From the NCBI GenBank assembly GCA_051362555.1, contig CM120647.1, positions 10,044,001-10,108,000 of the forward strand: 64,000 bases of DNA, given 5' to 3'. The notes beneath the pieces are model-generated. The model ran no database searches. It was not told the origin of the DNA and saw nothing but the letters and a program-made list of their open reading frames with translations. This document shows, in pieces, positions 5,081-59,584 of the stretch; the stretch's first letter is position 1; each line of letters starts with the position of its first letter. This stretch comes from Lingula anatina (lineage: Eukaryota; Animalia; Brachiopoda). A program made the translations under genes and the position numbers.

Positions 5081-5114
<34 letters not shown>

Positions 5115-7784: not shown

Positions 7785-7840
<56 letters not shown>

Positions 7841-8893
7841 GCGCGCGCTGTCCATATATTTCTAAAACCCTTAGCCGGTAATACGTTATATTTATGTTTC
7901 AAAGCGTGAACGAAAAATTTGGGATGCGTATCGTATCGTATCAGTAAGTGAACACTTGTTATACATGTACATTTAAGGTGAAGGATTTATTCACGATATG
8001 GATTATACCACGAGGGAAATAAATCATACTGATTTTGGCAGAATATCCAATTTCTTCTGTCGGTTGTACCGAAAATATTATAACAATAACATACATTGTA
8101 TGCTGAACGAATAAAACATTGTTTCTTAAAGGTCTGTACCAAAGGATTTCAGAGCGTTTGCTTATGGAATGAACGAGGCTATTGAGGGTGTACTGGGTAC
8201 GTATGTGCGTCATCACAATGGGCACATTCAAAACAGCAAGCTAACAGATCCGCGAATCAAATATGGCTGTTCCACTTGAATGCTTGTTACGTTATCCCCG
8301 CGGGAATTCTGTTCAGTGTCTAATCGGGAATTAAGCGGCAAGCTTTTTAGTTGGTTGCCGGATTTGATCCATGTACATTTCATTTTCTCAATTTGTGTCA
8401 TTTTACACTTCGTAGACGTTTCTCTATTTTAAAATGATGTACCATCCACCGCGACTATTACAAAGTGAAATACCAAAAATACCACCAACAGTTTCATGTT
8501 GTAAAAGTCAAACATTTTGTCATTCTGCAGTCTGTAATGAGAATTATAACTGTTATCATCCAAATTATTTTATATTTACTTGACCTAGGCAACATCCCGG
8601 CTGCCGTATTGTATGGTTACGTCATCGATGGCACGTGCACACTGTGGAAGACCTCCAAGTGTACCGGTGAAAAGGAAAACTGTCTGCTCTACGATAACAC
8701 AAATTACCGGTTACATTTCCACGGTCTCACCCTGGGCATCAAGGCTTTGGGTGCTCTCATTTACTTCCTTCTTTGGTGGAAGAGTCACGGCCAATGGACA
8801 TATTACTGGGATGATGATGATGAAAAGGCAGATAACGAAAGTGAAAGTGGTGAAAGTAAGATAGACTTGGAAATGCAGTCTGTGCGCTTTTAA
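3297..8893 (+). CDS. SLCO: Organic anion transporting polypeptide (SLCO/OATP family, MFS fold with Kazal-like extracellular loop), 10 coding exons, about 653 aa
   Basis: Phase-consistent exons: 3297-3825, 4249-4380, 4752-4841, 5240-5428, 5793-5957, 6324-6507, 7015-7144, 7574-7746, 8132-8196, 8589-8893 (1962 nt, no internal stop). OATP motifs: ITTIEKRFGLNSTQTG, YEIG, LGVTYIDEN, GPVIGFVLG..YVD, IGAWWLGF, FLPKYLETQF, Kazal-like CNC..FSLVCGADNATYLSACYAGC, YGYVIDGTCTLW..C..C.LYDN. Subfamily not determined. Confidence 0.95.
4207..4246. repeat. (TTA)n microsatellite abutting the SLCO exon-2 acceptor
   Basis: ttattattatt... runs directly into TAG at 4246-4248. Confidence 0.85.
6491..6856 (+). repeat. 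Degenerate G-rich minisatellite, about 21-bp unit (approx. TTAAGGGGATGGAGGGGTGAG), at the SLCO exon 6/intron 6 boundary
   Basis: Repeated ttaagggg..ggaggggtgag units. The first unit overlaps the exon end and the donor. Confidence 0.85.
7788..7848. repeat. (CT)n(CA)n(CG)n compound microsatellite
   Basis: Seen directly in SLCO intron 8. Confidence 0.9.
8219..8372. mobile_element. Partial, diverged copy of the 10920-11094 MITE in SLCO intron 9
   Basis: Shares tcaaatatggc..tccacttgaa..ttcagtgtcta..cggcaagctttttagt with 10958-11041. Confidence 0.6.
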
Positions 8894-11324: not shown

Positions 11325-12921
11325 CTATTGTTATTTGGATAAAATTGCACAAAAACTTTCAGCATGTATCACTAGAAATTGTATGTTTTGTTTGACGGCA
11401 AGTAGCTTTCTTCGGAGGGAAAACTCCGGCAGCATACCAGTACCAGTATCAGATTTCCAGCAAATCTGTTTTAGCGCACTGCACTGTAGCACGCTATTTA
11501 AAATGATACTTGCTGTTTCTGAAGTTGGACGTATATTTCCCCCTGACGTAAAATAGCAATGTGCACTTATTTTCATTAAAAAAACGCGCGTTTTAAGCAA
11601 ATCCATACGGCAGAATTGCTTGATAACGACCGTAGCGTCCACGAGAAATCACAATAATCACGCAGAAAAATTGTCACGCTGCTTATAAACAATGAGGATT
11701 AGAAGCAAGGGCGACGTGACAGGAATGGAAGTCCGCAAGGAACCGCAGTCCGTTTCCCATTACTTTGTACAGGTGACATTCGTCCCTGAACTAACCCCAA
11801 TACTCCCAATGCTGCTTGTTACTATTTTTCTGCCTAATTTAATTGTTTTTTGTCTTTTTTTGTTCGGTTGTGCATTCTTTATTATCCCTGCATGACATGC
11901 GTTTACCCTCTCTTTCAGAACTGTTGCTTGGTAACGAATCTCACCACGCAGGACGGATGTACGAAGGATAATTGGTGTATTAAACGGTTTTCTGAAATAC
12001 TTACAAACAGTAACAATAAACCTTTGAAAATAAAAGACAGTTTAAAATAAATCGTGATGAACTTTCACTTACCTGTTAAAAACCGCGGCGGGAGTTTAAA
12101 GCAGGTCTTTTTGACCAGCAAAGGCCTGATGTGTGAGATCCGTTTGTGATAAAAAAAATAGTTGTAAAAAGTGCAATCACGATAAAAATTCAATAAAACA
12201 TTAAAGGAATAAGTAAAGGGAAAGTAGTTTCAATTTAAATGCATATATTACATTTCTTGACACAAAAACACTATCACGTATATATACAAAGGTAGTAAGA
12301 ACAAATTCTTATCAATGTCAGGTGTCGGTTCACTGCGTTTTATATGCCTGAATATCAAAAGGTAAAAGTTTTCTCTCCGTTTTCATTTTAAGAACCTCAT
12401 GGCTCCTTTTTTGAAATTCTGCTCGACATTCTACCTCGAAGTCTTTTACAGTGAACTTGGAACGTAGAAAGAACGATTCTCTTGCCTTCTTTTCCAAGGC
12501 ATTATACTTTTGTCTATCTACTATACTCTGCAATGCCGTGTCTATCTTTTAGTCTAGTGGGATTTCCACAAAAGATGAATAGTAGGGGCATTTTGGGGTA
12601 AAAGTTGGGAACCATGCTAATTAGCATAATTTTGAGATGCTGAATCCGATTTTCCCGGTTCCCAAGCGATATTTTGCGTTTTTAACGGTCTAATTTGCAA
12701 AAAAAAACAAAATGGCCGCCAGATTTCTTATTTTCTGCAATATCTCTGGGACTAGACAGGTGAACATGACAAATTAAGTGTCTTTACCTATATTTTCAGG
12801 GTCGAGGAACATTATTAAGATGTTTCTGTTAGAAGTAGATTTACGCAATTTTCCTAAATATGCAAATTAGGATCGCCTGTAACTAGGCAAGCAAACATAA
12901 CAAATGAAGTGTCTACACCTA

Positions 12922-14299: not shown

Positions 14300-15262
14300 A
14301 AACTGCTAACAACGCGTGCAGCCTCTTCTAGCTGCAACCAAAGCCCTCATTCCATGCAGAGAGGTTTCTGAGAGTTTGATCCAGTATTGTGTTACATGCA
14401 TTAGTCAGAGCTTGCCTAAGCTTGTGCCGATTTGTAGGGTGGACGGGTAAGCTCTTGATTCTGCTAGCGATTTATGCCCACAGGTTTTCTATAGAATTCA
14501 TGTCAGGGGAATTTCGTCGGCCAAGGCAACTGGTTTACCTCTTGGTTTTGCAGCAAGCAGTTATTGCATGGGCATGACGTGGTCGGGCATTGTCATCTTG
14601 CAGGATGAAGTTGTCCTGGAAGTACCTTCTTGCAAATTGCAAGCAAGTATTCTCTAAAATGTCCTTGTATTTTATCTGGTTGAGGTTTCCGTCAATTGCC
14701 ACCAATAGTGTTTTGGCTCCAGAGTGGAAACCGGCCCATACACAGATACTGCCACGGCCACAAGTCACTGTAGTGTGACACAATCCTCGTGCAGTAACTC
14801 GTCTGGAAACCTACTGACTCTGATTCAGCCATCGCGGTGGTGGAACTCAAACCTTGCCTCATCTGTAAAAATCTACATGAACCCAGTGCTGTGCCTGGAA
14901 CCGCAAATGGCGTCTAGCCCACCATGTTGCTCTGTTCATAGAGTTAACCAGGTAAAAGTAGCCTTGCATTTACTAGAGTTCTAGAAACATGCTTTTGAAT
15001 GGTAATTTGCCACTCATTTTGTACAGCAAGAGTTGTATTTGTCCGGTTGTTGCGACATAACCGTAGAAGCAAGCGGTCTTCCCTTCTGGTGGTGACTTTA
15101 GGACATCCTGGCCGTGGTCTCTGTGCTAATGCACCAGTCTGTGCGTGTTTCTGTAAGATGTTAGAAACTGCTCCCTGGGACACATTCAGCTGTCTGGCAA
15201 TAGCAGTTTGCTTCTGTCCATTCTGGCATAACGCAACAATAGTGTGACAAGTTGCTGCCGTT
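14300..15262 (-). pseudogene. Degenerate Tc1-family (DD34E-type) transposase fragment
   Basis: HTH region ..QTAIARQLNVSQGAVSNIL..RPRPGCPKVTTRREDR; catalytic motifs IFTDEARF, VWAGF, FILQDDNARP, SPDMNSIENLW, broken by frameshifts. Confidence 0.9.
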
Positions 15263-16341
15263 AGTTCACATACCGTAAGGTCAGCTAAGAGTCTGCAAAA
15301 TATCAAACTCTTCTGACTGGAAGTTGTCGAAATATAGATAGTTATTCTGTAACCAACCAAAGAGGACTGCTCAGAGAAACTGCCACATATTACGTAAGGC
15401 GTGCCCTGACCTCCCCCTCTTCTTCGAATTCTGGTTCCCCTCCCTTGAAAATATAATTTTGACTAGCTGAATCATAGTTGTAAACCATACCAAATGGCAT
15501 CGTTTGCCCTCTTAAATACCAATTTGTGTGGTCCTTCAACAGGCCCCTAACCCGTTACCAAGTGGGGGGGGGGGGGGGGGGGGGGGGCTTTGCATCCGCG
15601 GACTCACCCTTCAAATAATCCTGGATCCGCCTCTGCTCACCTTGCCTTATAATTGATGGGAAATCACTGACAATTTCACTGGGAAAGCCTGACAATGCAG
15701 TGACCTTTGGTAGTTTGGCTGACACGTACTTAAGAGCAGTTCTGAAGGCAGGTTCTAACTATCAGCAGATTGACTTGTTTTTGACAGATACAGGGAAGAA
15801 ACAATAAAAGGTGCTTCTCGGACACGATTCACAAAGTCAGTGCTACCCATCAGACAAGACATCTGATTTATCACATTCCCTGACCCTGAGAACATAGGTA
15901 TAGACAATTCATTTGTCATGTTTGCTTGCCTAGTTACAGAGATACAGAAGTAAAACGGTTTTTCAGTAATGGCGATCCTAATTTGCATATTTAGGAAAAT
16001 TGCGTAAATCAAATTCTAACAGAAACATCTTAATAATGTTCCTCGACCCTGAAAATATAGGTAAAGACGCTTCATTTGTCATATTTGCCTGTTTAGTTCC
16101 AGAGGCATTGCAGAAAATAGGAAATCTGGCGGCCATTTTGTTTTTTTGCAAATTAGACCGTTAAAAACGCAAAATTTCGCTTGGGAACCGGGTAAATCGG
16201 ATTCAGCATCTCAAAATTATGCTAATAAGCCTGGTTCCCAACTTTTACCCCAAAATGCCCCTTGCCTCTTATGCAGAGCCTTTTTTCAAAAATATCACTA
16301 GACTATTTAAGTGTTTTGGCGTTTGATTCCCGTAGCCTTAA

Positions 16342-18525
16342 AGGAGAATAGACTCATAAAAATCCATTTTTCGAATTCTGAAGATTCAGCACTCAGTCTA
16401 TACACTAGAGGTATGTTTTAATCGATCCCCGCCATTTAGAAATTATAAAAAAAACAACAATCTATTAGTAGAAAAAAGCGTTTTAGTAAACCTCACGTGG
16501 TACTGTGACGACAATTGGGATAGAGGTCTATGAGGCTCAACTGAGCTGCATGGTGCATACAGATGGAGAAGTTTAGAAAAGTTGTGTTGAATAGAATTGA
16601 CCAATTTTCGTTATGCCTCGGTGTGTTGCCGTGGGATTCACCCAAATTGCAGCTCTCGTTGACAATCTTTCTTTGTCTGTGACGGTCTCTTGTGACTTAC
16701 TTACTAACTTCGGTGCTCGAGATCATGGTCACCTCAGGAGGTTTAGATTATATCAGGAGCTGGTAGTCTTTCAGATTAACTGTCATTAGTTGGCGAACTT
16801 ACTGATTCCTGATGCATTTTAAATGCATTGTAGTTGACCAAGAGCTCGTTTACAACAAACCTGTTAATTATGCACCGTTGCACTTCCCAACCCAGGTAAT
16901 AACAGGTATCAAAATCGTCTTGGTGGGCTTTCATATTTTTCAATATATCTCATTTATCTCATGGGGTTATTTTATTGGTATTTGTAAATGACGTAAAATA
17001 TCAATATTTAAGCAATTGAGTTTAAACACCGTCGCGAACATTAATAAAAGTAATTGCTCTCAGGCTATCTTGAAGCATGCGTATGCCCAGGCATTACTTC
17101 CGTGGAAGAAAACGTGTTGAAGAACAAACAGAAAAAAGAGTGGTATATTAAAGAAAAAATGGGAACTTATGTAATAAAATGGTTCGAAATCCTAATTAGA
17201 TCATGTTTTGAGGATTTGTTTCTGAAGGTTATTTCATCTGAAGTATAAAACAATTTAAAATATTTATTATTTTATACCTTGAAATACAAGTTCTGCGTCT
17301 GTACACAAAACTTTTTGCAAATTTGTATGCTTTGTCAAACCCAAAACCATGTAGCAGATCAAGGTAAAAGAGAATTGTTTGCTATAAGTAGCATGGAAAA
17401 AATCATTACTTGAATGTTTACTAAATGTGCCGTTTTACATACGCTAGTATAAAAAATTTAAAAAAATCCAAGCACGTACAGCAAAATGTAGATTAACGCA
17501 AAACGTCAAGAACAACGTAATCACAGCAAATGTGCCCCATATAGTAGCTTAATTTCCATTAATAATAAAATCATCATTTAAGTCAAAAATTGTCTGGCGA
17601 TTTAATAAAATTTCCAATTTACCCAGAACGGTATATTTATTTAAAAGGAGGCTAACTGAAATATAGTTTTATTATTTGTTTGTGAAAATTGCCCATGTCA
17701 CCCTGTTAGTTAAGAGGTCTAAGCTGGATCAAGTCCGTGCTAAATTCCTATGAAGCTGTGCAGGAAAAATTCTTCCTTTGTTTCTCTAGCTCCTCAATAA
17801 ATCTGGTGTTCAGATTTTATCTAGTACCCCCAGGTCTGCGGGAGCTGCTCTTTGAAACTTACGCACAGGTAGATTTTTACCTGAGATAAATATCGCCAGC
17901 CATTTAACCCTCTAATTAAGAGGTAAAGGAAGTTCCAGTTAGATAGATGATTAGATAGGACTTGTAAAGGTAACGGGCATTGTTTACCTCAGTTTAAGAA
18001 AAGTATGCAAGACGGAGTGTCAGCGGTTTAATAAAATTAATTGAAATTAACAAATAACATGGCCCTCATATGCAATAATCAACAGTACCCTTAACTCATT
18101 CAAATGCAGTGTTATACAACTTGGGATGACCATAATTAAAGGCTTGTTAAAGAATTGACTAGAAGGGAATGGTTTTACACAGCTTCACGAGGATTCAGAC
18201 CCCTCGGGTAAGAGATATGAATGAGTATTATTTTTTATTAGAAGCCAGAGAAGTCATCTTACAGGTAGACAATGCAGCTCAGTTTGACAGCTAAGCACGC
18301 TCTGTTCTCCGGGTGGCTCGATTCTCGTCATCGGACCACGTGACCACGTAGCTCATTAACTCCCAGGCCAAGCAAATAGGACGTTTCTTAAAGCCAAAAA
18401 TTTACAAAATGAGCTTTTAATTTGTTCACATACCGTAAGGTCACATGTTTTCATGTTTTCGCATGTTTTCTGAAGAATACATGTATGTTCCGTTGAGGCC
18501 ATTTTGACGGTATGCCGCAAACCCT
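16342..18525. mobile_element. TTAA-specific insertion with AGG...CCT termini (Kolobok-like, non-autonomous or composite)
   Basis: TTAA at 16338-16341 and 18526-18529. Removing it restores the paralog codons ..GAA GCC CTT AAG GCT ACG (EALKAT). The termini match only over AGG/CCT. Confidence 0.7.
17465..17697 (+). repeat. Dispersed direct repeat (about 235 bp); other copy at about 38465-38696
   Basis: caagcacgtacagcaaaatgtaga...ttgtgaaaattgcccatgt at both sites. Confidence 0.85.
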
Positions 18526-20974
18526 TTAAGGGCTTCAGTGAGATTAACAGATTTTTGTTTTCTTGTATATTATTCAAGTACCTTTCGGTAGCGATCATGT
18601 ACTAAGCTAAGATTTCTAAGTGTAACTGGCTTTTCCTCGTTGGAGAAGGTTCATGTGGTATTTTTAGCTTTAACTGTTGTCCTGATTTGATGTTCCATAG
18701 CGATCTGTGGCGTTGTTTCGTTGGTGTTGTTTTCCAGGTTGTCCTGCTGCAGGGAATTGTTTTCATGTTCCACATTGGGTACACTGTCCTGGTAGTGCAG
18801 CACTACGACCCTGTAGTCAGTGCGGCCGACTTCCACGCATTTTACTTTCTGTTTGCTACAGTAATTACAAAGCAAGTGTGCTTCCCTCTGGACATTTTCT
18901 AAGACGACATACGTTGCCTTTCCTTTACGATCTTCACTTCGATTTTGACACACATAATATGTTTCATTGGGAACATTAAACGTCTTTGTCGGAATTTCTA
19001 CATTTGCACCCTTCTGTCCTTGTTTAAATGGTTGAAAAATTCCCGCATTTAGCCAAGTAATCAAGCTCGACCCCGCATTACCGCACGTCTGTCGTTAACG
19101 AATACCTACTGACTACAAAATTACTAAACCATTGAATTTCCTAGTGTGATTGGTACAACATAATTGTCCTTGATTGACAAAAACACCCTGAAACACCCTG
19201 AAATACCGGCTAGGTTGGGTCTCTTCTGAACACACTTTTGTACATTTTACAATGTCTTGGTTGAAATGAAAGATATTAAAATGTGTATGAGTTGTAAGTA
19301 TTTTTGTGTTGTTTTTAAGTTATAGGGCCTCTTTTCACAGTCGTAACACCTTTAAAATGGGGTCATGTCGATACCCCCCCCCCCCCCCCGTACCGTTACT
19401 CCCCCGCACCGATACTCCTCCGCACCATTTCTCCCCCGCACCGATACTCCCCTTGTCAGGAACCAAAGTATGTAAAAAGTGTAATTAGTACTTTGAACTT
19501 TCATACATGATGTTATATTAACTCAATGTGTAACAGTAAAAAGGCAGAAATTAATATTTTTCCAGTCATGGTTTCTTGTTGATGTAGAATTCATTCTGCG
19601 ATATTGGGGTCGCTAAAGTCATAAGCATAAGAACACGTTTGATCCGACGAAGGAATTGTCTCTGCATTGGAGAGAGGTCGTGTGTGGACGAAAGTTAGTT
19701 TCAGTCTGAGAAAGAGTGGGTGTAAATAGATATGTTAGGATTTCCTTCTCACAGGGGTGGAGAAGTTAAAAATATTGCCCTCAAGTTATGATTTATATAT
19801 ATATAGTTCTGAGTATGGATGTGTGAAGGCATAATTATATTCAAACAGAGTTCTAGTGACCATAATGGATAACAAAAAGTCTTACCTTTTCCGTGGGTTA
19901 AGGAATTTTCAGGCAACCGTGCCAGCTTTGGCCAGGGCAGGTTTGGTTGGTCTGGGCGCAGGTGCGCATTCGTCTCAGACAATATGGGAATTCTTTTACT
20001 TGATGGGATCGGTGGCTTGTTAACGTTTTGGCCTCACTAAGGACAAGAAAGAACGGGGCGTGTTTCCTAAGAAATAATTGACAGGTAATTGTTGGTGAAT
20101 AATCTCCTGGAGTTGGAGATGTTTGGCTGGAGAAAGCCGGTGTTGGGTTCTCCTTGTTAGAGGCAGGAGACACATTTTTGGGCCGGCCGGTCCGGACCTA
20201 AAGTGGTCAGTTAATTAATATATTCCATGGAGATGGAGATGGATTATAGGATCCATGGCAGTATGTGCAGTATATTTTTAGTTTAATTATTAGTGAGTAA
20301 TAGGTGAGAGATGTTTACGTCGAGTATTAAGACGGGATCGACCCAAGGGACACAGTTGTGGCTTGGTATATCAGTCCAGCCAACTTGGTGACTCTAACCA
20401 GGTGGTTGCATAGCCAGTCAATACTCAGGCAAAATAAGAACATGGGCAAGGTACAGTTAATAAGTACATTGGGAGATAAGTAAATATCACCTGTGTAGTT
20501 AGATATGCATGGCAATAATAATCTTATATTGAATCTTTAACCTTGTATTTGTTGCAGTTATACAGTGGTGGAGAGAAAAGAAGATGTGTATTCTACTTTT
20601 CATAGGGTAATCATATTTTTTAAATTAATTTTTCCCCACTTGGGGAGCGTGTTTTTTTTTTCATACTTTCAGGTTAACGGTGCGTCTTACACCAGGCACT
20701 GAGATCTAAGCAACGCTCGTTTCGTCTTCATCCGGGGTATACAGAAAGTCAACGACAGTGTGGTGTGATAGCTAGGGATTTTCCACCTGCGGAGGCATCG
20801 TTGATCTCCAAACTTCGAGTCGTCTTTCAAATACGTAACGCTCTGGCAACCTGCAATCTCCGATGCGGCTGGGCCCGTGATCAGCGCCATTCCTATCATC
20901 ATCGTGGGCTACGTATTTCCGTAATTTTATGAAGAGATCCTTACTACGCAAGTGACTACGCGCATGATATACAT

Positions 20975-32047: not shown

Positions 32048-33335
32048 AATCTATCACCAACCCTATTTGCCTTATATATTAATGACTTAGCTCAAGAGAT
32101 AAAACGGATATCGAAAGGTGTTGAAGTAGGAAAAACTTTGTAGATATATTATTATATGCAGATGATGTGGTATTTATTGCTTCTACTGAGGAAAACTTGC
32201 AAGCTATGCTTGATAAGCTAAGTGAGTGGTCTTATAAATGGAGTTAATTTGTCAACCAAAAGAAAAAAAATCGTACATTTTAGAAAACCAGGTGTTGAAA
32301 GGAGTAACTTTCAGTTTAATTTCGGTGGAGTGCAACTTGATTATGAAAAGTCTTATAAATATCTTGGAGTTACCTTAGCAGAGACACTTAATTATAGTAC
32401 AAATGCAGATGTGATGTCTCATGCTGCAGGTAGGGCATTGGGTTCCATAGTAGCTAAGTATAAACATCAAGGATATATGGGGTATTCTACGTACATAAAG
32501 CTTTTTGATTCTTGTGTTAGTCCCATTCTAGAATATGCAGCAGGTGTTTGGGGATATAATGACTATAAGCAGCTAGATAAAATTCAGTTTAGAGCCGCCA
32601 GGGTATTTCTTGGGGTGCACAAATTAACTCCTCTTCTGGCCATAGAAGGAGATATAGGATGGATGAATACTAAGTATAAAAGATGGTTGCACCTTATAAG
32701 ATTGTGGAACAGACTTTTGAGCATGAGTGACGATAGGATTACAAAACAAATTTTCCTTAGAGATTATGACTTGGCAAAAGAGGGTAACATTAATTGGTGT
32801 GCGCATGTCTCTCAAGTTTTAGCTGTTTGTGAAATGGAGCCTTTGTTTAATGATTTAGTTTATTGTGATGTTGGCGTTATAAAGAACATATTATTTAAAC
32901 TGCAGGAGAGAGCCTGGAAAGAAGTCGTATTAAAAAAACCAAAGTTAAGGGTCAATAGAAAACTTAAAGAAAATTGAGTTGTGGAAAATTATGTCAAGTA
33001 TAATTTAAAAGCTGCAGAAAGATCGATCATGGCCCATTTTAGATCAGGGGTTCTTCCATTATATGTAGAAACGGGCCGCTTTGTTAACAAAAAATTAGAT
33101 GACAGACTATGTATTCTTTGTAACACAAAAAAAGTAGAAGTGCTTTTCACAGATTTTCATAGAAGCTCAACGAGGTTTCTCTTTAACTGCTTCCAGGTCA
33201 GAAAGAAGCTTCTATATAACTAATGTTTGGTAGCCGGTGACTTTGTAAGCCCATAGGGCTGGGCCGTTACTAATATATTCACATTATTGTATTATATTTG
33301 TATATATTCGGCATTGTCACGGAAATAAAACAATT
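32048..33335 (+). mobile_element. 5'-truncated, decayed non-LTR retrotransposon (LINE) ORF2: RT C-terminal half and 3' end
   Basis: LSPTLFALYINDL, VDILLYADDVV, YKYLGV, SPILEYAAGVWG, FRSGVLPLYVETGRF..RLCILC. Frameshifts and a stop are present; AATAAA near 33324. Clade not determined. Confidence 0.9.
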
Positions 33336-35734
33336 TAACTATATAAAAATGACAGTAAACCTGTTATCGTCCATTTTGTAATAAAGTATCAAAAATGAAA
33401 ATGAAGTCATATCATTGCAGTTCTTCAGAATCCATCTTTCACTAAGTTAAGAATCTCAGAATGGAGCAAGTTGGATTGATATTTTTCCTTTGACAACATT
33501 TTTTTTAAATTGATCATATAAAAATGACAGTAGATTAATTATTTTGTTTTATGTAAAAAAAAAGGTGTTGAAAATGGAAAACAACTCTTTTCAATATTAT
33601 TGAAATATTGCATGAAAATTGAACAAAACCCTATTTTGGGCACTGCCTCCGTGAAAGGGAAACCATGTCACTTACTCTTCTCACACTTACAGGAAAGAAA
33701 CATAGGACTGAAATACAGCTTCAGTTGGGAATTTTGTCTCATTAGTTAATTTTCTGGAAGTCATACAGTTTTTTGTGAAAAATTTTATCTTATATTGGAA
33801 TTTTCAGTGTGGACTCAGAGCTCCCTTCGGCATGAAGCCCAGTGGTAATCACATTTTCTTAATGTCCATGTTTTTAATAGTAGATATTTAAATATTGGTG
33901 GTATTTATACATTTAAATCATTATTTAATTTTGCATCAAATTTAACAAAAAACCTACTTTGTGCACTACCTTCATAAACGTTATGGAAAGAAAACTGTGT
34001 TATTTTCAATATTTTTAAAACTAATCTTACAAGAATGATTCTTAGGATTGACATACAGCTCATATGAGAAAACCAGCTCTATTGGATTATCATTGTTATT
34101 AAATTTATGCTTAGTTTGTGAAATTTTCATTTTTCTCATTCTGGCACTTTCAAAGTGTAAACTTGAACTCTGATGGGCCTGAAGCCATAGCTTTTACTTT
34201 CATCAGTGTTACCTGTTGTGCATAATTAAAATTTGATGTTGACTGTGCTGTTAAACATAATGTATTATTGCATCAGAATTGGCAGTCTCCTATTTTGTGC
34301 ATTATTATTTTCTGCTTTTCTTAAGGTGTGACTTATGGGCCTGAAGACCTTTGAGAGTGTCTGTCTGTAAATTTCCTTTGGGTATCACTAGGCTAAGTTC
34401 GGAGTCATTTGCTTAATTAAGTGGCCATTAAATGAGATTACATAAAGCACACTTGTTGATATTTCCCTGTAAACTCCCAAAGGTTAAGCTCTCTGCTAGA
34501 TTACATTGTCCATAATAAGGAAACGTGATAATTATGCAGGTAAATTTTGTTTAATATTGCAAAGTTTTAATATACAGGGTAACTACTTAATTTGGAATAT
34601 TTTTTATCATTGTTATTTTTGAGTGCTGATTAATTTTTTTTTTACTTGATTCATCAAGAAGAGTATGTCACTGAGTGATAAAAATATCCAGTCTTCTATT
34701 GTGAGATATCTGGTCAATAATATTAAATTTGACATAAAATGTCATTCAAAAGAAAAGAACACCCCAAGGAAACCATATCAACAGATTGATGTCAGTATTA
34801 ATTTTAAGCTATGATATTAAAGATAGCCTCTGGACAGTGATATGATACACGGTCAAAGAACTCACTACAGTAAATCATGAAAAATCAGTAATTGCGGGTA
34901 TGACCCCCAGCAGCCGCTTGTAGCGCCCTCATCCTACATGGCACTTTTTCAATTTATTAAACCTTTGAGCCCTACGGCTCATCAGAATATAAAACAGTGA
35001 CAATATAAAGTTATATCTAATCAACTACCATTACTACAACAACTATTAGTGATACAAACAATAATAATAATAATGATAATAATAATTCATCAGATTGACA
35101 TTAATCTTAGTTCCGGTGTACATTTCAGGCATTTTCCCTAATTGTTTAATTGTGATAAATTGTTAAGTGATAGTAATTTAATTAATTTAAAGACTCTTGG
35201 CTTTGTATAATAAAATTTCTTAATATATTTCTGCCTAATCGTGTTGTAGTGAGGGCATTTGAGAATAAAATGAAATTCATCCTCTACATCGTTTAAATTG
35301 CATCACTTACAGATTCTTAATTTCTTATTTGTGTCTGTGTATCGACCAGTCTCTACAGCTAGATTATGTGATGAAAGCCTCAATTTTGCGATAAATTCCT
35401 TATTTTCTGTGAAATTGGCTTATTCAAGTAAAATTACACTATGAATTATCAACAAGGTGTTGATACAAAATCCCTTTACTCGCTGTGAATATTTCTCCTG
35501 TCAGTACTTGTCTAAAATGGCCCTTCAATCTTTGTTCTATCAAGGACAGTATATAAACATCTGACACGTTTTCATAAAAAGTAAATGACAGACCCATTAA
35601 TTCAAGGTTATTCCGTATACAATTTATCCACTTTATTTATTTATTTATTTTTTATTATTGTAAAGGATATCTTTATAGCATGTTTGTATAATACAGTTTT
35701 TTGAAAAGCGGATTTTCAGCCAATAATTAACTCA

Positions 35735-37208
35735 AACCCTGCCTCATCTGTAAAAATCTACATGAACCCAGTGCTGTGCCTGGAACCGCAAATGGCGTCT
35801 AGCCCACCATGTTGCTCTGTTCATAGAGTTAACCAGGTAAAAGTAGCCTTGCATTTACTAGAGTTCTAGAAACATGCTTTTGAATGGTAATTTGCCACTC
35901 ATTTTGTACAGCAAGAGTTGTTTTTGTCCGGTTGTTGCGACATAACCGCAGAAGAGAGCGGTCTTCCCTTCTGGTGGTGACTTTAGGACATCCTGGCCGT
36001 GGTCTCTGTGCTAATGCACCAGTCCCGGCGTGTTTCTGTAAGACGTAAGAAACTGCTCCCTGGGAAAAATTCAGCTGTCTGCCAATAGCAGTTTGCTTCT
36101 GTCCATTCTGGCATAATGCAATAATAGTGTGGCAAGTTGCTGCCGTTGGCTCACATACCGTAAGGTCAGCTAAGAGTTTGCAAAAAATTAAACTCTTCTG
36201 ACTGGACGTTGTCGAAATATAGAGACTTATTCTGCAGAACTGCTGCCCTTTTATACGCATTATATAACCAGTCAAAGAGGACTGCTCAGAGAAACTGCCA
36301 CATATTACGTAAGGCGGGCCCTGACCCCCCCCCCTTCGAATTCTGCCCCCCCCCCCTAGAAATTATAATTTTGACTAGCTGAATCATAGTTGTAAACCAT
36401 ACCAAATGGCACCGTTCGCCCTCTTAAATACCAAAATGTTTTGGCCCTTCAACAGGCCCCTAACCCGTTCCCAAGTGGGGAGGGGGGGGGCTTTGCATCC
36501 GCGGACTCCCCCTTCAAATAATCTTGGATCCGCCTCTGCTCACCTTGCCTAATAACTGATGGGCAAGCACTGACAATTTCACTGGGAAAACCTGACAATG
36601 CAGTGACCTTTGGTAATTTGGCTGACACGTACGTAAGAGCAGTTCTGAAGGCAGGTTCTAACTATCAGCAGATTGACTTGTGTTCGACAGATACAGGGAA
36701 GAACCGAGAAAAGGTGCTACTCGGACACGATTCACAAAGTCAGTGCTACCAATCAGACAAGAATTCTGATAAAACACATTCCCTTACCTTGAGAACATGG
36801 GTGTAGACACTGCATTTGTCATGTTTGCTTGCCTAGTTACAGAGTTACAGAAGTAAAACGTTTTTTCAGTAATGGCGATACCGATTTGCATATTTAGGAA
36901 AATTGCGTAAATCTAATTCTAACAGAAACATCTTAATAATGTTCCTCGGCCCTGAAAATATAGGTTAAGACACTTCATTTGTCGTATTTGCATGTTTAGT
37001 TCCAGAGGTATTGCAGAAAATAGGAAATCTGGCGGCCATTTTGTTTTTTTGCAAATTAGACCGTTAAAAACGCAAAATTTCGCTTGGAAACCGGGTAAAT
37101 CGGATTCAGCATCCCAAAATTATGCTATTAAGCCTGGTTCCCAACTTTTACCCAAAAATGCCACTTGCCTCTTATGCAGAGCCTTTTTTCCAAAATCGCA
37201 CTAGACTA
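35735..37208. mobile_element. Second, left-truncated copy of the Academ-like composite element (Tc1 fragment plus right arm)
   Basis: Collinear with about 14849-16305, including the same Tc1 HTH ORF and the TFGNLADTYVRAVLKAGSNYQQIDL remnant. Ends in CACTAGACTA. Confidence 0.9.
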
Positions 37209-49821: not shown

Positions 49822-51722
49822 CACCATTGGTCAAAAAGGTTGTCCCACCCCCATTTCCATGTAGTTATATCTACAAATTATTACCTCACAGATGTAAATT
49901 GTTATAAACGGTGTTTTTTATTCCAGATACCATGTCTAACATGATTGATGGTTCAGAAAATATTGTGAAAATGTAAACATTTCATACCATTTAGTAACAT
50001 TTATAACAGGAACCCCCTCAAATCCAATGTTTCACTGCGATTTCCACAGATGTAAAGAAATGTCTATTAATTTAAAAAGACTCCATCAAATGTCACCAAA
50101 TTTACACGAAATAAGCATTAGGGTGTGCTCGTTAAAGGTCATGTGCCTAATAACGTGTGCCTCTGTGGCGTACCGCAATTATCTCCTGTAGGCGGCGCGA
50201 AAAGCCTAGCCTTAAACATGGGTAACAATTCTGTTTTATGGGATATTGTCCCATTAATCCTAAAGAGCGTGGCCGAATTGGTCCTGATTATTTGAAAATT
50301 GCACATTCCAATAACCGGTGCTCAGTGGGATTAATGTCAGGGCTCAAAGACGGTTGTCCTATCTTTAGATCCCCGTTTTTCTGAAACAAATCGCTTGCCA
50401 GACGAGAGCTGTGAGCAACTGCGTTGTCACAATGATGCCTGTAGCATCCCTGAAGTCACCTCTTGCAAATGGAGTGAGCAACAGGGGTATCTGTTGAGAA
50501 TGTTACAGTAAAAGGTCCCAGTTACGTTTTGTTCCAATAGGAACAATGTTTTAATATCATTGGCTTCCAAGAGGCATTTTTCAACATTTCGACGGACCCT
50601 CATTTGACCATCGATGGGATACAAGATCTTGATTCTGCATCAAAACCTACTTCCTTCCAGTGATGGATGGCCAGGTTCAGGTGCCTGTGGGATCACTGCA
50701 CATAGCACTCTCAGCTGATATCTCACTCCACCTTCAAAAACTGGATTTGGGGTTAACTCCAGGCTTCATTATGGCAGCACACTTGCTCACACCTCTCGCC
50801 TGGCAAGTGATTTGTCATAGAAACACAATGCTCTTAGGATGGAACCACCATCTTTGAACCATGATATTAACCTAACCAATCAACTGTGACATGAATTGGA
50901 GTGTGGAATGTAGAGGAGAACCAATTTCCAAATAATCTGGACCAATTCCGCCATCACTGGTTCCATCCTTAGAACATTGTGTTTGTACAACAAATCACTC
51001 ACCAGCGAGTTGGAGTTAACCCCAAAGGCAATTCTTGAAGATAGAGTGAGATATCAGATGAGAATGCTACGTTCAGTGATCCCACAGGGACCTGAACCTG
51101 GCCATCCATCACTGGAAGGAAGTCGGTTGTGCTGCAGAATCAAATTATTTCTTGTATCCCATCGATGGTCAAATGAGGGTCCGTAGACATGTTAAAATGC
51201 CTCTTGGAAGGTTGTGTGCAGGATAATATTGCCTGAGGTGTTATATCAGTCGGTATTTGGGAAATATTCCAAGCCCGTGGTATTAGTACATTGTTCCTTC
51301 TGGAACAAAACGTAACATGGGAATTTTACATTAACATTCTCAACAGAAAGCTCACTCCATTTGCAAGAGGTGACTTCAGGGATGCTACTGGCTTCATTGT
51401 GGCTACGCACTTGCTCACAGCTCTCGTCTGGCAAGTGATTTGTTGATGAAACACAGGGCTCTAAGGATGGGACCACCGCCTTTGAGCCCTGATATTAATC
51501 CTACTGAGCCCATGTGGCATTAATTGGAATGTGCATTGCAGAGGAGAACCGATTATGAAATAATCCAGACCAATACCGCCGAGCTCTTTAGGATGGATGG
51601 GGCAATATCCCACAAAACAGAATTATTACCCTTGTTGAAGGCTTGTCGCACCATATACAGAGATAATTGCAATACGCGGTAGACGCACACGCTATTAAGC
51701 ACATGACCTTTAACGAGCACAT
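49822..51722. mobile_element. Longer CAGCATTGG-family Tc1 derivative with transposase remnants and an internal inverted duplication; right TIR absent
   Basis: Left TIR ta|caccattggtcaaaaaggttgtccc; DGQMRVRR-like remnant; arms about 50124-50761 and 51010-51720. Confidence 0.75.
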
Positions 51723-52437
51723 CATAATGGGGTTTTGGGGTTTTCTCTGTGCGTCCTTACGTAAATCTATCCACCAAGTAAGACGAAAACGTAATGTCCT
51801 ATTTCGAGCCCGTGCTTGAATTAAGCGTACGGAAATTATTTAAGTTTAGGACATTCATTCCAAATGTATGAAAGGGTTCATTACAGTATGTTCCCTTTTG
51901 GGCTTAGAAGATGATTCCATGAGAGTAAAACTTAGATACAATCTTCTTCGTGTGGAACCCTAAAATAACCAAACATCGTTTGTAATCTGAGCACTAAATA
52001 TTTTTGGAGCATGCCTGTCACATCAATTGCACCTCTATATTGGGTGTGGGTATTTTACCCGAGCACCCACGCTACGTTTCAACGGCAATTAAAGGACACT
52101 ATTTAGTACTATACAATCCTGCCATCGATTTTCCTTTAAAGTCTTAGTTCAGATTTTATTGTTGATTGAGTAAAATAATGCCTCTGTTTAATGGAAACCT
52201 GTAATTAAGGGCTCAGACCCCCATAAGAAATGCATTTAAACCAAAATGACGGCACGGGATCGCAGCCTATAGGGGAGACCGGGGCTAGTTGGCCCAGTTA
52301 GACACTTTTGGCCTTGTAGAGCCAACTAGAAATGAGTCCGAGTAACAAAGCCGGTTTCAATGTGCGGCCCCATGAACTAAGCTACGTATGCAACGTCATT
52401 TGTTTTCAGATATAATGCCAGATGGCTCATAATTTGA

Positions 52438-53537: not shown

Positions 53538-53781
53538 AGACCATTCCCACAGATATTTAGATCGATCTATCTCCCTGGGTAGTCTTACTAGATTATTGTC
53601 AACTTGCTTAAATGTCTGTCACGCCTAGTAAAGCTGGTAGGGGGTAATTATCTTTACCCCCTTAGCTGATTCGGTAGGCTTGACAGACATTTAAGCCGGT
53701 TAGTTGACAGCAATTTAGTGAGACTCCCCAGGGAGTTAGATCGATCCAAATGGATCGATCTAAGTATTGGTGGGCAGTCTT
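53538..53781. mobile_element. Diverged tagatcgatcta-family MITE
   Basis: Similar to 27147-27360; ends decayed. Confidence 0.6.
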
Positions 53782-54034
53782 GGAAACTTTCTACAAATTA
53801 TAACGTTACTATAATGTGTTTTGTTAGCTGGAGTTAAAAACACCCCTAACGTTACCATAATGTTGATTGCCAGGAACACGTATAAACCACTTCTATTAGA
53901 TTCTTACATGACTAAAATAAAGTCGACATGCCTAGGGATAAAATGAATAAACCACTCGATCAGCCACAAAAAAAAAAAAAAAAAAAAAAAAGATTTAGAC
54001 TGCTCCTTTCTTTAAATTTTTTATCAGAAATTTA

Positions 54035-54637
54035 GGCCACACTTTTTTATTTTTATGGATGACATCCTCTGGGGACCCCAAAATCGGTGCGAGCGGGCGA
54101 AAAAAAAAACTGCTTAAGAAAAGTTGTGTTTTCAGTACACAGCGGGAAACACTAATTTACCACAGAAACACGTATCAAACTAACAACATGTCTTTATCCA
54201 TGCTCTCAAAATATTAAAGCATTGTGAATAGGGCCTACTTCGTACAAAGGTAAAAAGTCATGAATATAGGGGCCTATATGCTGCATATTACCAAATCTAT
54301 TTAAGGTTATTTCATGCATTCTGTTGGTATAGCAATCGATAAAACAAATATCAAATAAACAGCGTGTCTTTATTTGTACTCTCAGAAAATTAAAGCATTG
54401 TAAACACTTCACAGAATTGTTAAAAAAATGAAGCAAAGATAGGCCTATGCTTCCTACTACCAAATCTAAAAAAGTAATTTCGGTCGATGCCATTTTGTCT
54501 ACTTCGACTCACACATAGCAGCCAACTATCGGGTGGCCTGTCCGACCTTCAGTCCACCAAATACCACGACGCTCTTGTCGACCCTTTTTTCGTTACAAAA
54601 AAATTCAATAATGACGTTTGCGACAACCGACTTCCTT

Positions 54638-54681
<44 letters not shown>

Positions 54682-54743
54682 GAGAACGGACGAAAATCGG
54701 TGCGCGCGCAGGATGTCATCCATAAAAATAAAAAAGTGTGGCC
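54035..54743. mobile_element. MITE with GGCCACAC termini and TTA TSD (Zator/Harbinger-like)
   Basis: tta|ggccacacttttttatttttatggatgacatcct...aggatgtcatccataaaaataaaaaagtgtggcc|tta. Confidence 0.85.
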
Positions 54744-55045
54744 TTAACCTACTTTTCTGACCCATGTATATACAGGATAGTAAGCTAGCAGAAAAATCCA
54801 TTCAAATATCATTTTTCGGGTAATATGAAACAATGTCTTTTGGTTATTCTCTACATTATACTGTTTGAAACTATATGCTGCATTTGGTTGGTTTTTTGGC
54901 CAAAAATTACTTTGTGTGCATCTTTAATAGGCCCATTTTAAATAAGCATACGTTACTGCAAGGAAGGACACAAAGCGTTGGAGTAGGCTGCTCTACGCCT
55001 TCAACAGCTGTACACGTTTACAAGGGGAACTGTTAAACCAAATCG

Positions 55046-55256
55046 GATGGCGGACCTACATTAAAAGAAGACCGCTTAGTCCTGTAATGGTCCCTCCACC
55101 TCTCACACGCCTCCCCACGCGTTGTCCCTCGACCGATTTAATTGAGCCGAGATTTAATTGCTGTGCCCCTGCAGGGAAGGCGTGTGGGGAGGCGTGTGAG
55201 AGGTGGAAAGACCCTTACAGGATTAAGCGGTCTTCCTTTCATGTGGGTCCGCCATA
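55046..55256. mobile_element. Palindromic MITE-like hairpin; half copy at about 41993-42105
   Basis: atggcggacc..cacacgcctccccac / gtggggaggcgtgtg..ggtccgccat. Confidence 0.7.
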
Positions 55257-56554
55257 TTTAAGTCGCGGCCGTGCCAGCACTCAGCTCTTCTCAATCTGAA
55301 TGGTCCCCTATTGCAAAGCCATATGTTAAGCAGTTCCACGCGCTTAGCAGGGGAAGTGCTTAGCCAATGTGCTTAGCTTTGTGACAAACTATTATAGAGC
55401 CATATACCGATGAAGCTAGACACATAGCTAAACGTGTGACGCTGTCAAACGTATCTAGCATTTTCTTCTGTGACAAGCCTGAAAAACTATACGTGTTTAG
55501 CTTTTACACATATTTCTAAATGCGTTCAAGTGCTAAACGTGTGTTGTATGTATTTATATCTAAACACTGTATTTAAAGTGTATAAAGCAGGTTTTTAATG
55601 AATGAAAACAAATACTACATTTTCGTTTTAAAGAAAGTTATAGAATCAGTTCTAAACCATCGAGTTTGTTTCAACAATGGTCTCTAGCTCTGTTGCGCAC
55701 AAAGGTTTGTGGGTAATATGAGGGTCCAACTTGCCCCGAGTCAAGGGGACCAACCAGCCCCGGGTGCACATTTTTTTTTATATTAAAGGATGACAGCCAT
55801 TTATGTTGAGCAAAGATTATACATCTCTGTAAAACTTGAAACAATGAGCTTCAGTTTGATGCCCTATACATACATGTTTATTATATTCGATCAAAAGCCT
55901 ATGAAAATAGATTTTGACATCTCAAACAAAATTACTTGAAGTGCAAAAGTCTTTTATTTTGACTCACCGCTTAAGTAAGACGTCCGACATTTCCTTAGCA
56001 TTGTAGGCTACGGTCACTTTACAAGAGTATGTGGCCAATTTTTTTACCACGTAGTTCCTTTTCCATAAATTGACGGGGGGAGGAGGGACTTCCCCCGGGG
56101 TCAAACTAGCCCCGGTCTCCCCTACACTCGTGATCTACTCTGCCAATTTTCGTGATAAAATCTTGTTAAGGGATGAAGTTACTCCCATACCGATTCGAGT
56201 TGCCTATGCTTTTACATTGCAACGAGGAACATAAACGCCGGTTTTCATATTTTCGAGTGTGTTTTTTATTCTTTTACATCAGTACAAAGATAGGTGCATT
56301 GTTGAATGATGGCATGCAAGAAAAAACTTATTTTCGGTATATGGATGGTAATAAAGGGTTAAAATATCCTTAATTTGCTAGCTTTCTCTTTCATGACGGC
56401 TAATATTACAAAATCTCTTAAATGAAATTTTAATGACATTTTAAAATATCTACATTCTGGAAAAATATCCATACGACAGAGTTAACCTCTAGCACATGCC
56501 GAATGAAGAGCTGAGATAATTATATCTGAATTTTTTCTTCAGAGCTGAGAAGAA

Positions 56555-58555
56555 ATGGACCACAGCCACGACTACACAGATCTTGACTGTAGTGCGTCAT
56601 CTAATAGCAGTGAGGTTATACATTGTCACAATTTTCCCTGTTTCAAGAAAGCGGATGTTGCCTGTGTGGATTGTTGTTACAGTCCAATAATAGCAAATTT
56701 CTGCCGGAAATGTAGTGAACATCACCACCCTGATAAACTGTCGGAGATTCACCATAGGATACCACTGAGCTCGCAGGGTGAATGTAACCTTTCGCAGTTT
56801 TCTAACAGGAGATATGTGTGTGAGAATATATACAGAAGAGAAAGTTGCGAGGGAGAAGCAGCGACTGCATGTTTAGACTGCATCCAATTTCATTTAATAT
56901 TGAGATGTTCCGCATGTGACATATCTAAGCACACGGGCATAGAGGCAAACCACCGGAGAATACGACTCCACCCTGTCAGCAGTGATAGTGAATTAGGCGA
57001 CTCTAGTTCTCATACAATAAGGATTGAGGAGGATGGTGGGGAGAGCTACGGCAAATGTCTGTGTTGCCCCGATGAAGCAGTTGAAGCGTGCAATGACTGT
57101 GATATTGTTGGTTGCCCCGCCCTGTGTTCCCGTTGCGATAATAAAATACACAACAAAAAGCTAATCTCATCTCACACCAGGATACCCGTAGAACAATTGC
57201 TACAACTGAAACAAGGACAGATGGATAGAAATATAGAAATTCCGACGTTTGATGTTCCCAATGAAAAATTTTATGTGTGTCAAAATCGAAATAAAGATTG
57301 TGAAGGAAAAGCATCATATGTTGTCTTCGAAAAAGACTGGAGTGTAGCCAGTTTGCTTTGTGATTACTGTTACAAACAGGAAATGAAAGACCCGAAACAC
57401 TACTGTAGTCCATACACAGTCGGAATGCTACACTACGAGGATATTTCCATGACTAATCAGGACAATGATAACTCCGTCGCAAGTGAAGATCAGAATTCAA
57501 CGACTGGACATGATACTGACAATGTCGATAGGGAATACGCCGATGCAGCTACACAAGCTTCACAGCAAGAAAGAAGCAGTGACCACGATAGTGACAACAG
57601 TGTTGATGCAACGCCAGAGAATGCACCGATGCAACAAGTTTCTCCACAATATGAGAGGCATGAAGTGCCAGAAGTGCAAAGGTCTCACAATGCCAGTGGC
57701 CACGATAGTGACAACAGTGTTGATGCAACGCCAGAGAATGCACCGATGCAACAAGTTTCTCCACAATATGAGAGGCATGAAGTGCCAGGAGAAGAGCAAA
57801 GGACTCGCAATGCCAGTGGCCACGATAGTGACAACAGTGTTGATGCAACGCCAGAGAATGCACCTATGCAACAAGTTTCTCCACAATATGAGAGGCATGA
57901 AGTGCCAGGAGAAGAGCAAAGGGCTAACAATGCCAGTGGCCACGATAGTGACAACAGTGTTGATGCAACGCCAGAGAATGCACCGATGCAACAAGTTTCT
58001 CCACAAACTTCTCGTGATGAAGAGTATTCTGACCACGCATTCTATAAATGCGACAGGTGTGAGAAGCCGGCGGAGTCATTGTGCATGGATTGTGAAAGAA
58101 ATCTCAACAGATTTTGTAAAAGGTGCTTAAGCACAAAGCATAAAACCCCAGGACTGAAAAGGCATTTATTGCTCAAAATACCAAATGCTAAAACTAGGGC
58201 TAAACCAGTCACTTTACGAAACCTTAGCTTAGTGCACGAGCGTTATCAAAAGGTGTTTGAATACACCAAAAAAGAAAAGCCAAGCACTCTCGCCGAAGCC
58301 CTGAAAGCAACAGGTGTAAAACGACAAACTCTCATAGATAGACACGGTATTGCGGAACTGTTTTTAGTTGACAGGAAAAAATTCGACGAATTGGAAAGGA
58401 AAGCCAAAGAATCCTTCTTCGGCTCAAAATTTACAGTTAGGGATTTTGAACTGAATTGTCGCGAAGAACTTCAAAAAAGGAGGGAAAAAGTTATAAAAAT
58501 GAAAACAGAAGGGAAACTTCTACCTCACGATATTGAATTATACAAAACGCAGTGA
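56555..58555 (+). CDS. 666-aa protein: multiple B-box-like zinc fingers, 40-aa acidic tandem repeats and a C-terminal CCDC106-like (HTH-like) domain
   Basis: Uninterrupted 2-kb ORF preceded by a splice acceptor (ttttttcttcag, 56531-56542). It has four C..C....A...CxxC....CxxC...H.......H motifs plus one degenerate one. The C-terminus ERYQKV..TLAEALKATGVKRQTL..GIAELFLV..C..KVIKMK..KLLP matches the CCDC106 pattern as I recall it. A diverged paralog in the same window supports real coding status. Confidence 0.9.
   Translation: MDHSHDYTDLDCSASSNSSEVIHCHNFPCFKKADVACVDCCYSPIIANFCRKCSEHHHPDKLSEIHHRIPLSSQGECNLSQFSNRRYVCENIYRRESCEGEAATACLDCIQFHLILRCSACDISKHTGIEANHRRIRLHPVSSDSELGDSSSHTIRIEEDGGESYGKCLCCPDEAVEACNDCDIVGCPALCSRCDNKIHNKKLISSHTRIPVEQLLQLKQGQMDRNIEIPTFDVPNEKFYVCQNRNKDCEGKASYVVFEKDWSVASLLCDYCYKQEMKDPKHYCSPYTVGMLHYEDISMTNQDNDNSVASEDQNSTTGHDTDNVDREYADAATQASQQERSSDHDSDNSVDATPENAPMQQVSPQYERHEVPEVQRSHNASGHDSDNSVDATPENAPMQQVSPQYERHEVPGEEQRTRNASGHDSDNSVDATPENAPMQQVSPQYERHEVPGEEQRANNASGHDSDNSVDATPENAPMQQVSPQTSRDEEYSDHAFYKCDRCEKPAESLCMDCERNLNRFCKRCLSTKHKTPGLKRHLLLKIPNAKTRAKPVTLRNLSLVHERYQKVFEYTKKEKPSTLAEALKATGVKRQTLIDRHGIAELFLVDRKKFDELERKAKESFFGSKFTVRDFELNCREELQKRREKVIKMKTEGKLLPHDIELYKTQ
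57581..58006 (+). repeat. Coding tandem repeat, 120-bp unit x ~3.5 (first unit 117 bp)
   Basis: cacgatagtgacaacagtgttgatgcaacgccagag starts at 57584, 57701, 57821 and 57941. Confidence 0.95.
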
Positions 58556-59584
58556 ACCGACGCCTGACATGAAAATTTGTTAACTGCATTTGTATATAAA
58601 CGTGATATTGTATTAGGGTTAAGCATATGTAATATATTCATTGAAAAGTGAAACTTCTTTATCACTTTATTTCGTTTTTACGGTGATTGTACGTTTTACA
58701 ACTATGGTGAGATCACAAACGGGTCTAACACATCAAGTCTTTGTAGGTCAACCAGACCTGCCTTAAACTCCCTTGCAGATAAAAGATGCTGCTGTTTTGT
58801 TGAATGCACCCGTTGCTGAGATAAAAAAGCTGATTTTAAATATAAAATTAACAGACTGCCATCCAGCATTTCAGAACTCACTTGTTGTAATTTAACTGCT
58901 GTTCAGGTGAGATGTATTTACTTAACTGAGAATTGATAAACTCACCATCCATCCCCTATGATTTCAATGACCCCGTTTCTTTGAATTTCGCTGTCTAATG
59001 TCTGTTTATAATGGGGAAGGTATTAAATAATTAAAATGTGGGTACTCTAAATTTATTTTGCAATAAATAACTTTATATTCAAGGTCTATCTACGCTGATT
59101 GTGAGCCATTACAGAATGTATCGTTAAGTTAATATCTTAAATGTATATCTTTCATTATTTGCTTTTCATGATTAGAGAATAAAAAAGTATATGATAGGGA
59201 GTTATTGACCACAAGTTTAATTTTCTTGAGAAGCAACAAGAGTAGCAACTGTTTTAAAGTTGGCAAAAGAGGGCACGTTACAGATAAAACAGTTTGGTTT
59301 GATGAGCTCATTACACGACGTAATTCTACCACGAGCTAATCACCCAAAAGACAATAGAACAAAAACAAATAATGTGTGATCAGTACGGAAAATTGAATAT
59401 AATTCCTTGTGAGTTTGTATGAAAAATAAGTCGTTGAATAAACGGTGATCTTTAGTGTTGATCTTCACGAAGCTTGGCCTTTTGCTCTTCATAATATCGC
59501 AGTCCTCTGTTAGCTTAATTCATCGCAGTAATGTAGTTTTTCCAGCATTCTGCAGGTCTGGTTGCGTCCAATGCCTTCATCTAA

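Follow-up and report, generated by a model that had tools for sequence, protein, structure and literature searches.

What kind of protein is encoded by a long open reading frame (ORF) set among dense repeats in the genome of the brachiopod Lingula anatina, and to which known regulators is it related? The ORF lies in a window of 64,000 nucleotides (NCBI GenBank assembly GCA_051362555.1, contig CM120647.1, positions 10,044,001 to 10,108,000 of the forward strand), the whole stretch analysed here, to which all coordinates below refer. Its product, P0001, has 666 amino acids (aa) without internal break and combines several B-box-like fingers, an acidic repeat linker and a C-terminal domain of the CCDC106 family. 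An initial annotation, made from the letters of the window, regarded this combination as a lineage-specific and possibly transposon-derived fusion. We find that the C-terminal domain, in the model built for it, is predicted to have the fold of the LEAFY DNA-binding domain, a likeness that the annotation had missed.

Judged by profile comparison, P0001 is a member of the CCDC106 family through its C-terminal domain. Taken alone, aa 536-666 matched the Pfam family CCDC106 (PF15794) with 38 bits, above the cut-off of 30.2, and the whole protein did so with 29 bits, just below it; the above-cut-off match takes in profile positions 125-217 of 220, nothing before position 121 is matched in either scan, and the same family was matched at E<=10 by 34 of the 38 alignment rows. 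The domain is basic (31 K/R against 19 D/E), and the motif TLAEALKATGVKRQTL (aa 578-593), in which a helix-turn-helix-like spacing had been noticed from sequence, spans two short helices of the predicted model in a helix-turn-helix arrangement. Human CCDC106 is a p53-binding nuclear protein of 280 aa whose C-terminal domain is likewise predicted to be compact and helix-rich (PMC10713525); the comparison was made through the Pfam profile and that paper. P0001 differs in its length, its zinc fingers and repeat linker, and in leaving the N-terminal coiled-coil half of the profile unmatched.

The domain model was built without templates, from alignment rows with no detectable similarity to LEAFY. 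Its structural match to the LEAFY DNA-binding domain covers 89% of the model, in order and with the N-terminal arm included, and among 48,161 chains no other comes within 7 Z units of it; the matched span comprises 119 residues here versus 149 in LEAFY. By this match the model is predicted to have the LEAFY DNA-binding-domain fold, which is characterized by a helix-turn-helix within a seven-helix domain; the initial annotation had proposed a check of the C-terminal domain for a helix-turn-helix fold. The best 50 structural matches listed include no transposase helix-turn-helix, a viral structure library yielded nothing at E<=0.001, its top match having E 0.97, the ESM Atlas gave no usable match for the domain or for the amphioxus relative P0024, and family profiles run against PDB sequences returned chance-level rows only.

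The reading that we favour, and hold to be probable, is that P0001 is a CCDC106-family nuclear regulator working like LEAFY, with a predicted LEAFY fold that likely binds DNA via the helix-turn-helix and with fingers that would assemble copies or recruit partners. The C-terminal domain would read DNA with its N-terminal arm (R548) and recognition helix (K584, R590 and D595), the acidic repeat would serve as a spacer or an activation-type region, and the fingers would gather protein copies or partners in place of the SAM polymerisation described for LEAFY (PMC4844672). A nuclear location and common descent with LEAFY would complete this picture. The two domains were compared in sequence with a LEAFY set of genes from metagenome contigs (23 distinct domain sequences out of 75 loci, three of them full length and confirmed by Pfam and PDB); since the resulting LEAFY profile is shallow, the power of the sequence tests is low. 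Profile comparison and helix-block search gave the same register, placing R590 on K307, I594 on R311 and D595 on residue 312, and the block search placed K584 on R295 in two of three proteins. LEAFY R295, K307 and residue 312 are DNA contacts (10.64898/2026.04.13.717636). Among 48 relatives, R or K occupies column 584 in 32, column 590 in 38 and column 594 in 41, and D occupies column 595 in 33. The structural match starts with R548 on LEAFY R237. The corresponding contacts would be R237/R548, R295/K584, K307/R590 and 312/D595, in a register taken from range end points and non-significant alignments. R237 is the minor-groove arginine of LEAFY. A hand-set block comparison, with 14 of 78 positions identical, including seven highly conserved family columns, was set post hoc and is not counted as evidence.

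Several observations weigh against this reading. The LEAFY-fold claim comes from one confident model without significant sequence support: the HHalign comparison with LEAFY gave P 0.24, with 51 of 150 column shuffles as high, and the helix-block search with three proteins was equalled by 97, 7 and 166 of 250 shuffles (not significant in two of the three and marginal in one). Arginine occurs at column 548 in only 8 of 40 relatives, LEAFY N291 faces A580 and so has no counterpart, and Ile594, opposite LEAFY R311, departs from the conserved basic residue of the family. B-boxes occur in ubiquitin-linked TRIM proteins, and the main rival to a LEAFY-like regulator is that the LEAFY fold is used here as a protein adaptor, its basic surface gripping acidic activation domains and its fingers directing partners into ubiquitin-linked turnover; sequence-specific DNA binding would then be slight or absent. 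The isoleucine at 594 speaks for this proposal, as does the human protein, whose C-terminal domain binds p53(15-29) with a dissociation constant of 0.32 µM and lowers p53 (PMC10713525). It nevertheless appears unlikely: the conserved basic residues fall on LEAFY DNA-contact positions, a basic DNA-binding face could also pull down an acidic peptide, and P0001 has no RING pattern.

From LEAFY itself P0001 differs in several ways. Against the LEAFY/FLORICAULA references (Pfam C_LFY_FLO PF17538 and SAM_LFY PF01698; PDB 2vy1, 4bhk, 8s8q, 9fwy and 9g19), the domain falls some 30 residues short in the part that superposes and has no detectable sequence similarity, C_LFY_FLO giving no match on P0001 at E<=10. 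LEAFY has an N-terminal SAM domain, whereas P0001 has B-box-like fingers instead, Pfam finding no SAM; LEAFY, the switch of flowering, is described as plant-only, whereas P0001 lies outside plants; and the land-plant dimer residues H387/R390 fall outside the aligned range. Because it has neither a SAM domain nor a sequence match, P0001 is not filed as a LEAFY member.

How old, then, is the architecture? With aa 496-666 as query, 1.84 billion representatives yielded 37 proteins at E<=0.001, mainly via the CCDC106-like domain, and a family profile search returned 31, of which 28 were new. Named sources include the corals Desmophyllum and Pocillopora, Branchiostoma species, the abalone Haliotis rubra and the ichthyosporeans Chromosphaera perkinsii and Sphaerothecum destruens. 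A B-box-like finger stands in front of the domain in 16 of the 94 stored domain proteins; P0001 alone has several, and the 15 single-finger relatives include 10 named amphioxus proteins in three paralog groups and one from abalone. The lineage-specific fusion initially proposed is not supported: found in 15 other proteins, including several amphioxus species and abalone, the fusion of a B-box-like finger with a CCDC106 domain is old and widespread, and what is locally new is that the fingers have multiplied. The proteins of amphioxus (for instance, Branchiostoma belcheri LOC109482678) and abalone (Haliotis rubra LOC124276851) have finger, linker and C-terminal CCDC106 domain in common with P0001, but carry one finger, at least 100 residues ahead of the domain, whereas P0001 has four fingers and a degenerate one, the last abutting the domain. 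In the tree, P0001 does not group with them, sitting on a long branch within no supported set.

Other relatives carry different N-terminal modules. A SAM domain is clear in P0005, a metagenome record (E 1.4e-12), and a SAM-like module in two ichthyosporean proteins is weak (E 0.06 and 0.1) and in register with it, SAM_LFY being matched by none of the three; further relatives have coiled coils. The CCDC106 domain lies at or near the C-terminus in all stored relatives, and the family plan is one of an exchangeable N-terminal module, a low-complexity linker and a conserved C-terminal domain, the module being SAM-like in ichthyosporeans, one finger in amphioxus and abalone, a coiled coil in human CCDC106 and some relatives, and several fingers here. 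P0029, P0030 and P0041-P0054 have an N-terminal Cys/His knuckle and a coiled coil before the CCDC106 domain and fall in a cluster of 57 members. The recurrence of the SAM-first architecture speaks against a further explanation, that the LEAFY match arose because small helical domains converged, or because the model favours a fold met in its training, and that the domain is an unrelated helical module. Given also that the match is ordered, takes in the arm and is isolated above all other chains, and that neither templates nor LEAFY-like rows entered the model, we consider this quite improbable, and less likely than a LEAFY-like regulator. No relatives were found in viral contigs (three single-protein queries), metagenome contigs (one protein query) or prokaryote genomes (one query), and PHROGs gave nothing for P0001; as weak negatives, nothing turned up at 366-1166 aa when aa 495-666 were put through a word-index homolog search, nor at 796-2270 aa with the family profile.

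The fingers and linker largely follow the initial description. Complete sets of eight Cys/His ligands are present at aa 24-66/67, 89-133, 168-207 and 499-537, and the strict spacing of the B-box type 1 consensus occurs only in the third and the last of these. In 5000 shuffles no more than one such finger ever arose, against the three present in aa 1-300. When scored with a profile made from the fingers of homologs, finger 2 reaches 10.6 bits, whereas the highest of 500 shuffles reaches 8.1, and the degenerate finger predicted at about aa 242-273 is confirmed from aa 242, with its middle CxxC lost, and is closest to finger 2. The Pfam expectation held in part: the CCDC106 match passed its cut-off, whereas the best B-box match, of finger 5 to the ANCHR-like B-box (E 7.9e-5), reached 23.1 bits against a cut-off of 27, and aa 1-300 scanned alone matched no Pfam family at E<=1. 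A single-sequence fold of aa 496-666 was poor (predicted local distance difference test 49.6 overall and below 50 at finger 5), and a prediction of two copies of this segment with zinc, made without an alignment, gave no verdict on assembly (score 0.00). As stated earlier, a RING is lacking, by pattern and by Pfam alike. Fingers 3 and 5 resemble TRIM/RBCC proteins and the B-box type 1 family (ANCHR/ZFYVE19-like, PF22586) in their Cys/His spacing, but P0001 has no RING pattern and no coiled-coil family match downstream of its fingers, and is not a TRIM. The linker is acidic and repetitive, as first described (42 D/E versus 10 K/R); its 120-bp repeat is a young expansion that preserved the reading frame.

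The dead paralog reported in the initial annotation was recovered as two pieces on the minus strand with in-frame stops and a frameshift; roughly 6 kb of repetitive sequence, a Tc1-like remnant among it, separates the pieces. Neither finger 5 nor the repeat expansion is present in the paralog, and its fingers 1-3 could not be located. Within the C-terminal domain the gene and the broken copy differ almost only at silent sites: over 98 codons, the proportions of synonymous (pS) and non-synonymous (pN) differences are 0.79 and 0.16, whereas over 80 codons around finger 4 (aa 218-297) they are 0.22 and 0.25 (dN/dS ~1.2), the silent divergence of the two regions differing with P 6e-10. The two copies are thus a mosaic, in keeping with the fast turnover suggested earlier, and the divergence pattern suggests that the CCDC106 domain was duplicated long ago and has been kept by purifying selection, and that the finger 4 region was exchanged more recently and may be unconstrained or diversifying. 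The 3' flanks (12090-12332, minus strand, and 58556-58772, plus strand) are clearly alignable after the stop despite the saturated silent sites, and represent either a conserved 3' untranslated region (UTR) or a recent conversion tract.

Could the gene be transposon cargo, or a transposon part that was domesticated, with an element making its copies? Its uninterrupted coding sequence, repeat-dense flanks and broken inverted copy nearby would suit such an origin, as would weak HTH_psq matches, the best at E 0.006, which 5 of the 38 family members gave, and the clusters of dozens of members to which some relatives belong. However, between 48 and 64 kb there are 292 inverted-repeat pairs, and not one of the 25 longest brackets the gene; the copies have no element ends in common, their likeness being confined to the coding sequence and some 220 bp downstream of the stop, and Tc1-like remnants lie at least 20 kb off, one of them within the insertion that broke the paralog. 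The best DNA run has a depth of 37-70 over the gene against thousands over the flanking repeats, and the window shows no terminal repeats around it among the longest inverted repeats, and no linked transposase or reverse transcriptase, high copy number or poly-A tail for it. With viral-contig relatives and transposase-like structural matches also lacking in the searches above, the transposon derivation suggested initially has little probability compared with a LEAFY-like regulator. Least probable of all, and very improbable, is that the intact copy is a recently relaxed, functionless duplicate heading for loss, as its dead sister, degenerate finger 4 with elevated dN/dS and Ile594 might hint, for it retains a 2-kb open frame, four complete ligand sets, an in-frame repeat expansion and a strong purifying signal in the domain, although that signal is summed over the past of both lineages.

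Features of the gene and its broken paralog, with positions in the window.
Feature	Position	Strand	Remarks
Leader and acceptor-like site	56530..56554	+	Pyrimidine tract and CAG ending at 56542; in-frame TGA 56546-56548; from sequence
Uninterrupted 666-aa ORF (P0001)	56555..58555	+	ORF reading
B-box-like finger 1 (aa 24-67)	56624..56755	+	8 ligands, widened spacing
B-box-like finger 2 (aa 89-133)	56819..56953	+	8 ligands, first gap 8 residues
B-box-like finger 3 (aa 168-207)	57056..57175	+	Strict type 1 spacing
Degenerate finger 4 (aa 242-272)	57278..57370	+	Middle CxxC gone; fails 8-ligand pattern
120-bp tandem repeat x3.6, 40-aa acidic linker unit	57577..58006	+	96% matches
B-box-like finger 5 (aa 499-537)	58049..58165	+	Strict type 1 spacing; sub-cut-off Pfam match
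CCDC106-family domain (aa 548-666), predicted LEAFY DNA-binding-domain fold	58196..58552	+	N-terminal arm and helices
Predicted helix-turn-helix (aa 578-595)	58286..58339	+	K584, R590, I594, D595 aligned to LEAFY R295, K307, R311, residue 312
3' flank, still alignable to broken copy	58556..58772	+	AATAAA at 59062 and 59178
Broken paralog, 5' piece (like aa 218-333 and 550-584)	18525..19028	-	Two in-frame stops
Broken paralog, 3' piece (like aa 594-666 and 3' flank)	12090..12547	-	Frameshifted

The coding sequence is intronless, as first reported, but the acceptor-like tract and the in-frame TGA 9 nucleotides 5' of the ATG suggest a non-coding first exon and an intron in the 5' UTR; a nearer AG, skipping the TGA, may serve as an alternative acceptor, and no spliced read was seen. 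Of 10 contig runs labelled as this species, two contain most of the gene region (56400-58900), two a small share and six nothing of it, and no RNA run is listed as containing it. At 90% likeness, one DNA run without the region has no depth over 57612-58679. Among the RNA runs, X5 (6% read) placed none of its reads on the ORF, whereas X11 (25% read) covered 56544-57077 about onefold and the remainder at no more than 0.12. The holes in the DNA runs could be presence/absence variation, strong divergence or filtering, and divergence and filters can likewise produce those in the RNA runs.

Elsewhere in the window, a multi-exon OATP/SLCO organic anion transporter gene occupies 3261-8890 (plus strand), seven ORF pieces matching Pfam OATP in profile order; together with the Tc1-like remnants, this gene by itself points to an animal source for the window. 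Tc1/mariner-like remnants with paired-like helix-turn-helix matches lie at 14844-16305, inside the 6-kb insertion splitting the broken paralog, and at 35729-37208, and are 91% identical. Inverted duplicate pairs of 1.0-1.7 kb and 78-91% identity without Pfam match (40070-41737/45890-47558, 42456-44156/59594-61113 and 20972-22048/61690-62789) are probably non-autonomous elements. Nested palindromic elements resembling miniature inverted-repeat transposable elements precede the gene (50116-51729, 53555-53751, 54031-54747 and 55047-55255) and have very high DNA-run depth. ORF pieces at 32222-33220 (plus strand) have no Pfam match at E<=0.01 and presumably resemble the C-terminal tail of a long interspersed nuclear element reverse transcriptase.

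The literature calls LEAFY plant-specific or absent from mammals and leaves the origin of its domain open (PMC10713525; PMC9208459; 10.64898/2026.04.13.717636; PMC8287900; 10.1101/2022.11.22.517060; 10.1101/2024.12.23.629732; PMC4844672), and the CCDC106 structure paper, searched by term, makes no mention of a helix-turn-helix. No literature linking LEAFY/LFY with CCDC106, or CCDC106 with a helix-turn-helix, was found in a library with few subscription papers; ECOD, CATH/TED or AlphaFold clusters could already group both. The chances appear about even that the LEAFY and CCDC106 domains come from one early eukaryotic transcription factor with a SAM - linker - helix-turn-helix plan that persists in ichthyosporeans, and that animals swapped the SAM for B-box fingers or a coiled coil, which would make human CCDC106 and this multi-finger protein unrecognised DNA-binding regulators of the LEAFY class. 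A structural match over the whole domain, in a family known from ichthyosporeans, corals, a mollusc and amphioxus and extending to humans by Pfam, would offer a concrete answer on the origin of LEAFY. CCDC106, studied in cancer only as a partner of p53 and ATF4, would be recast as a candidate DNA-binding factor with named residues. The gene described here adds a multi-finger, recombining version to this old, uncharacterised family. With a LEAFY-type fold predicted, where LEAFY came from and what human CCDC106 does can both be put to a direct test.
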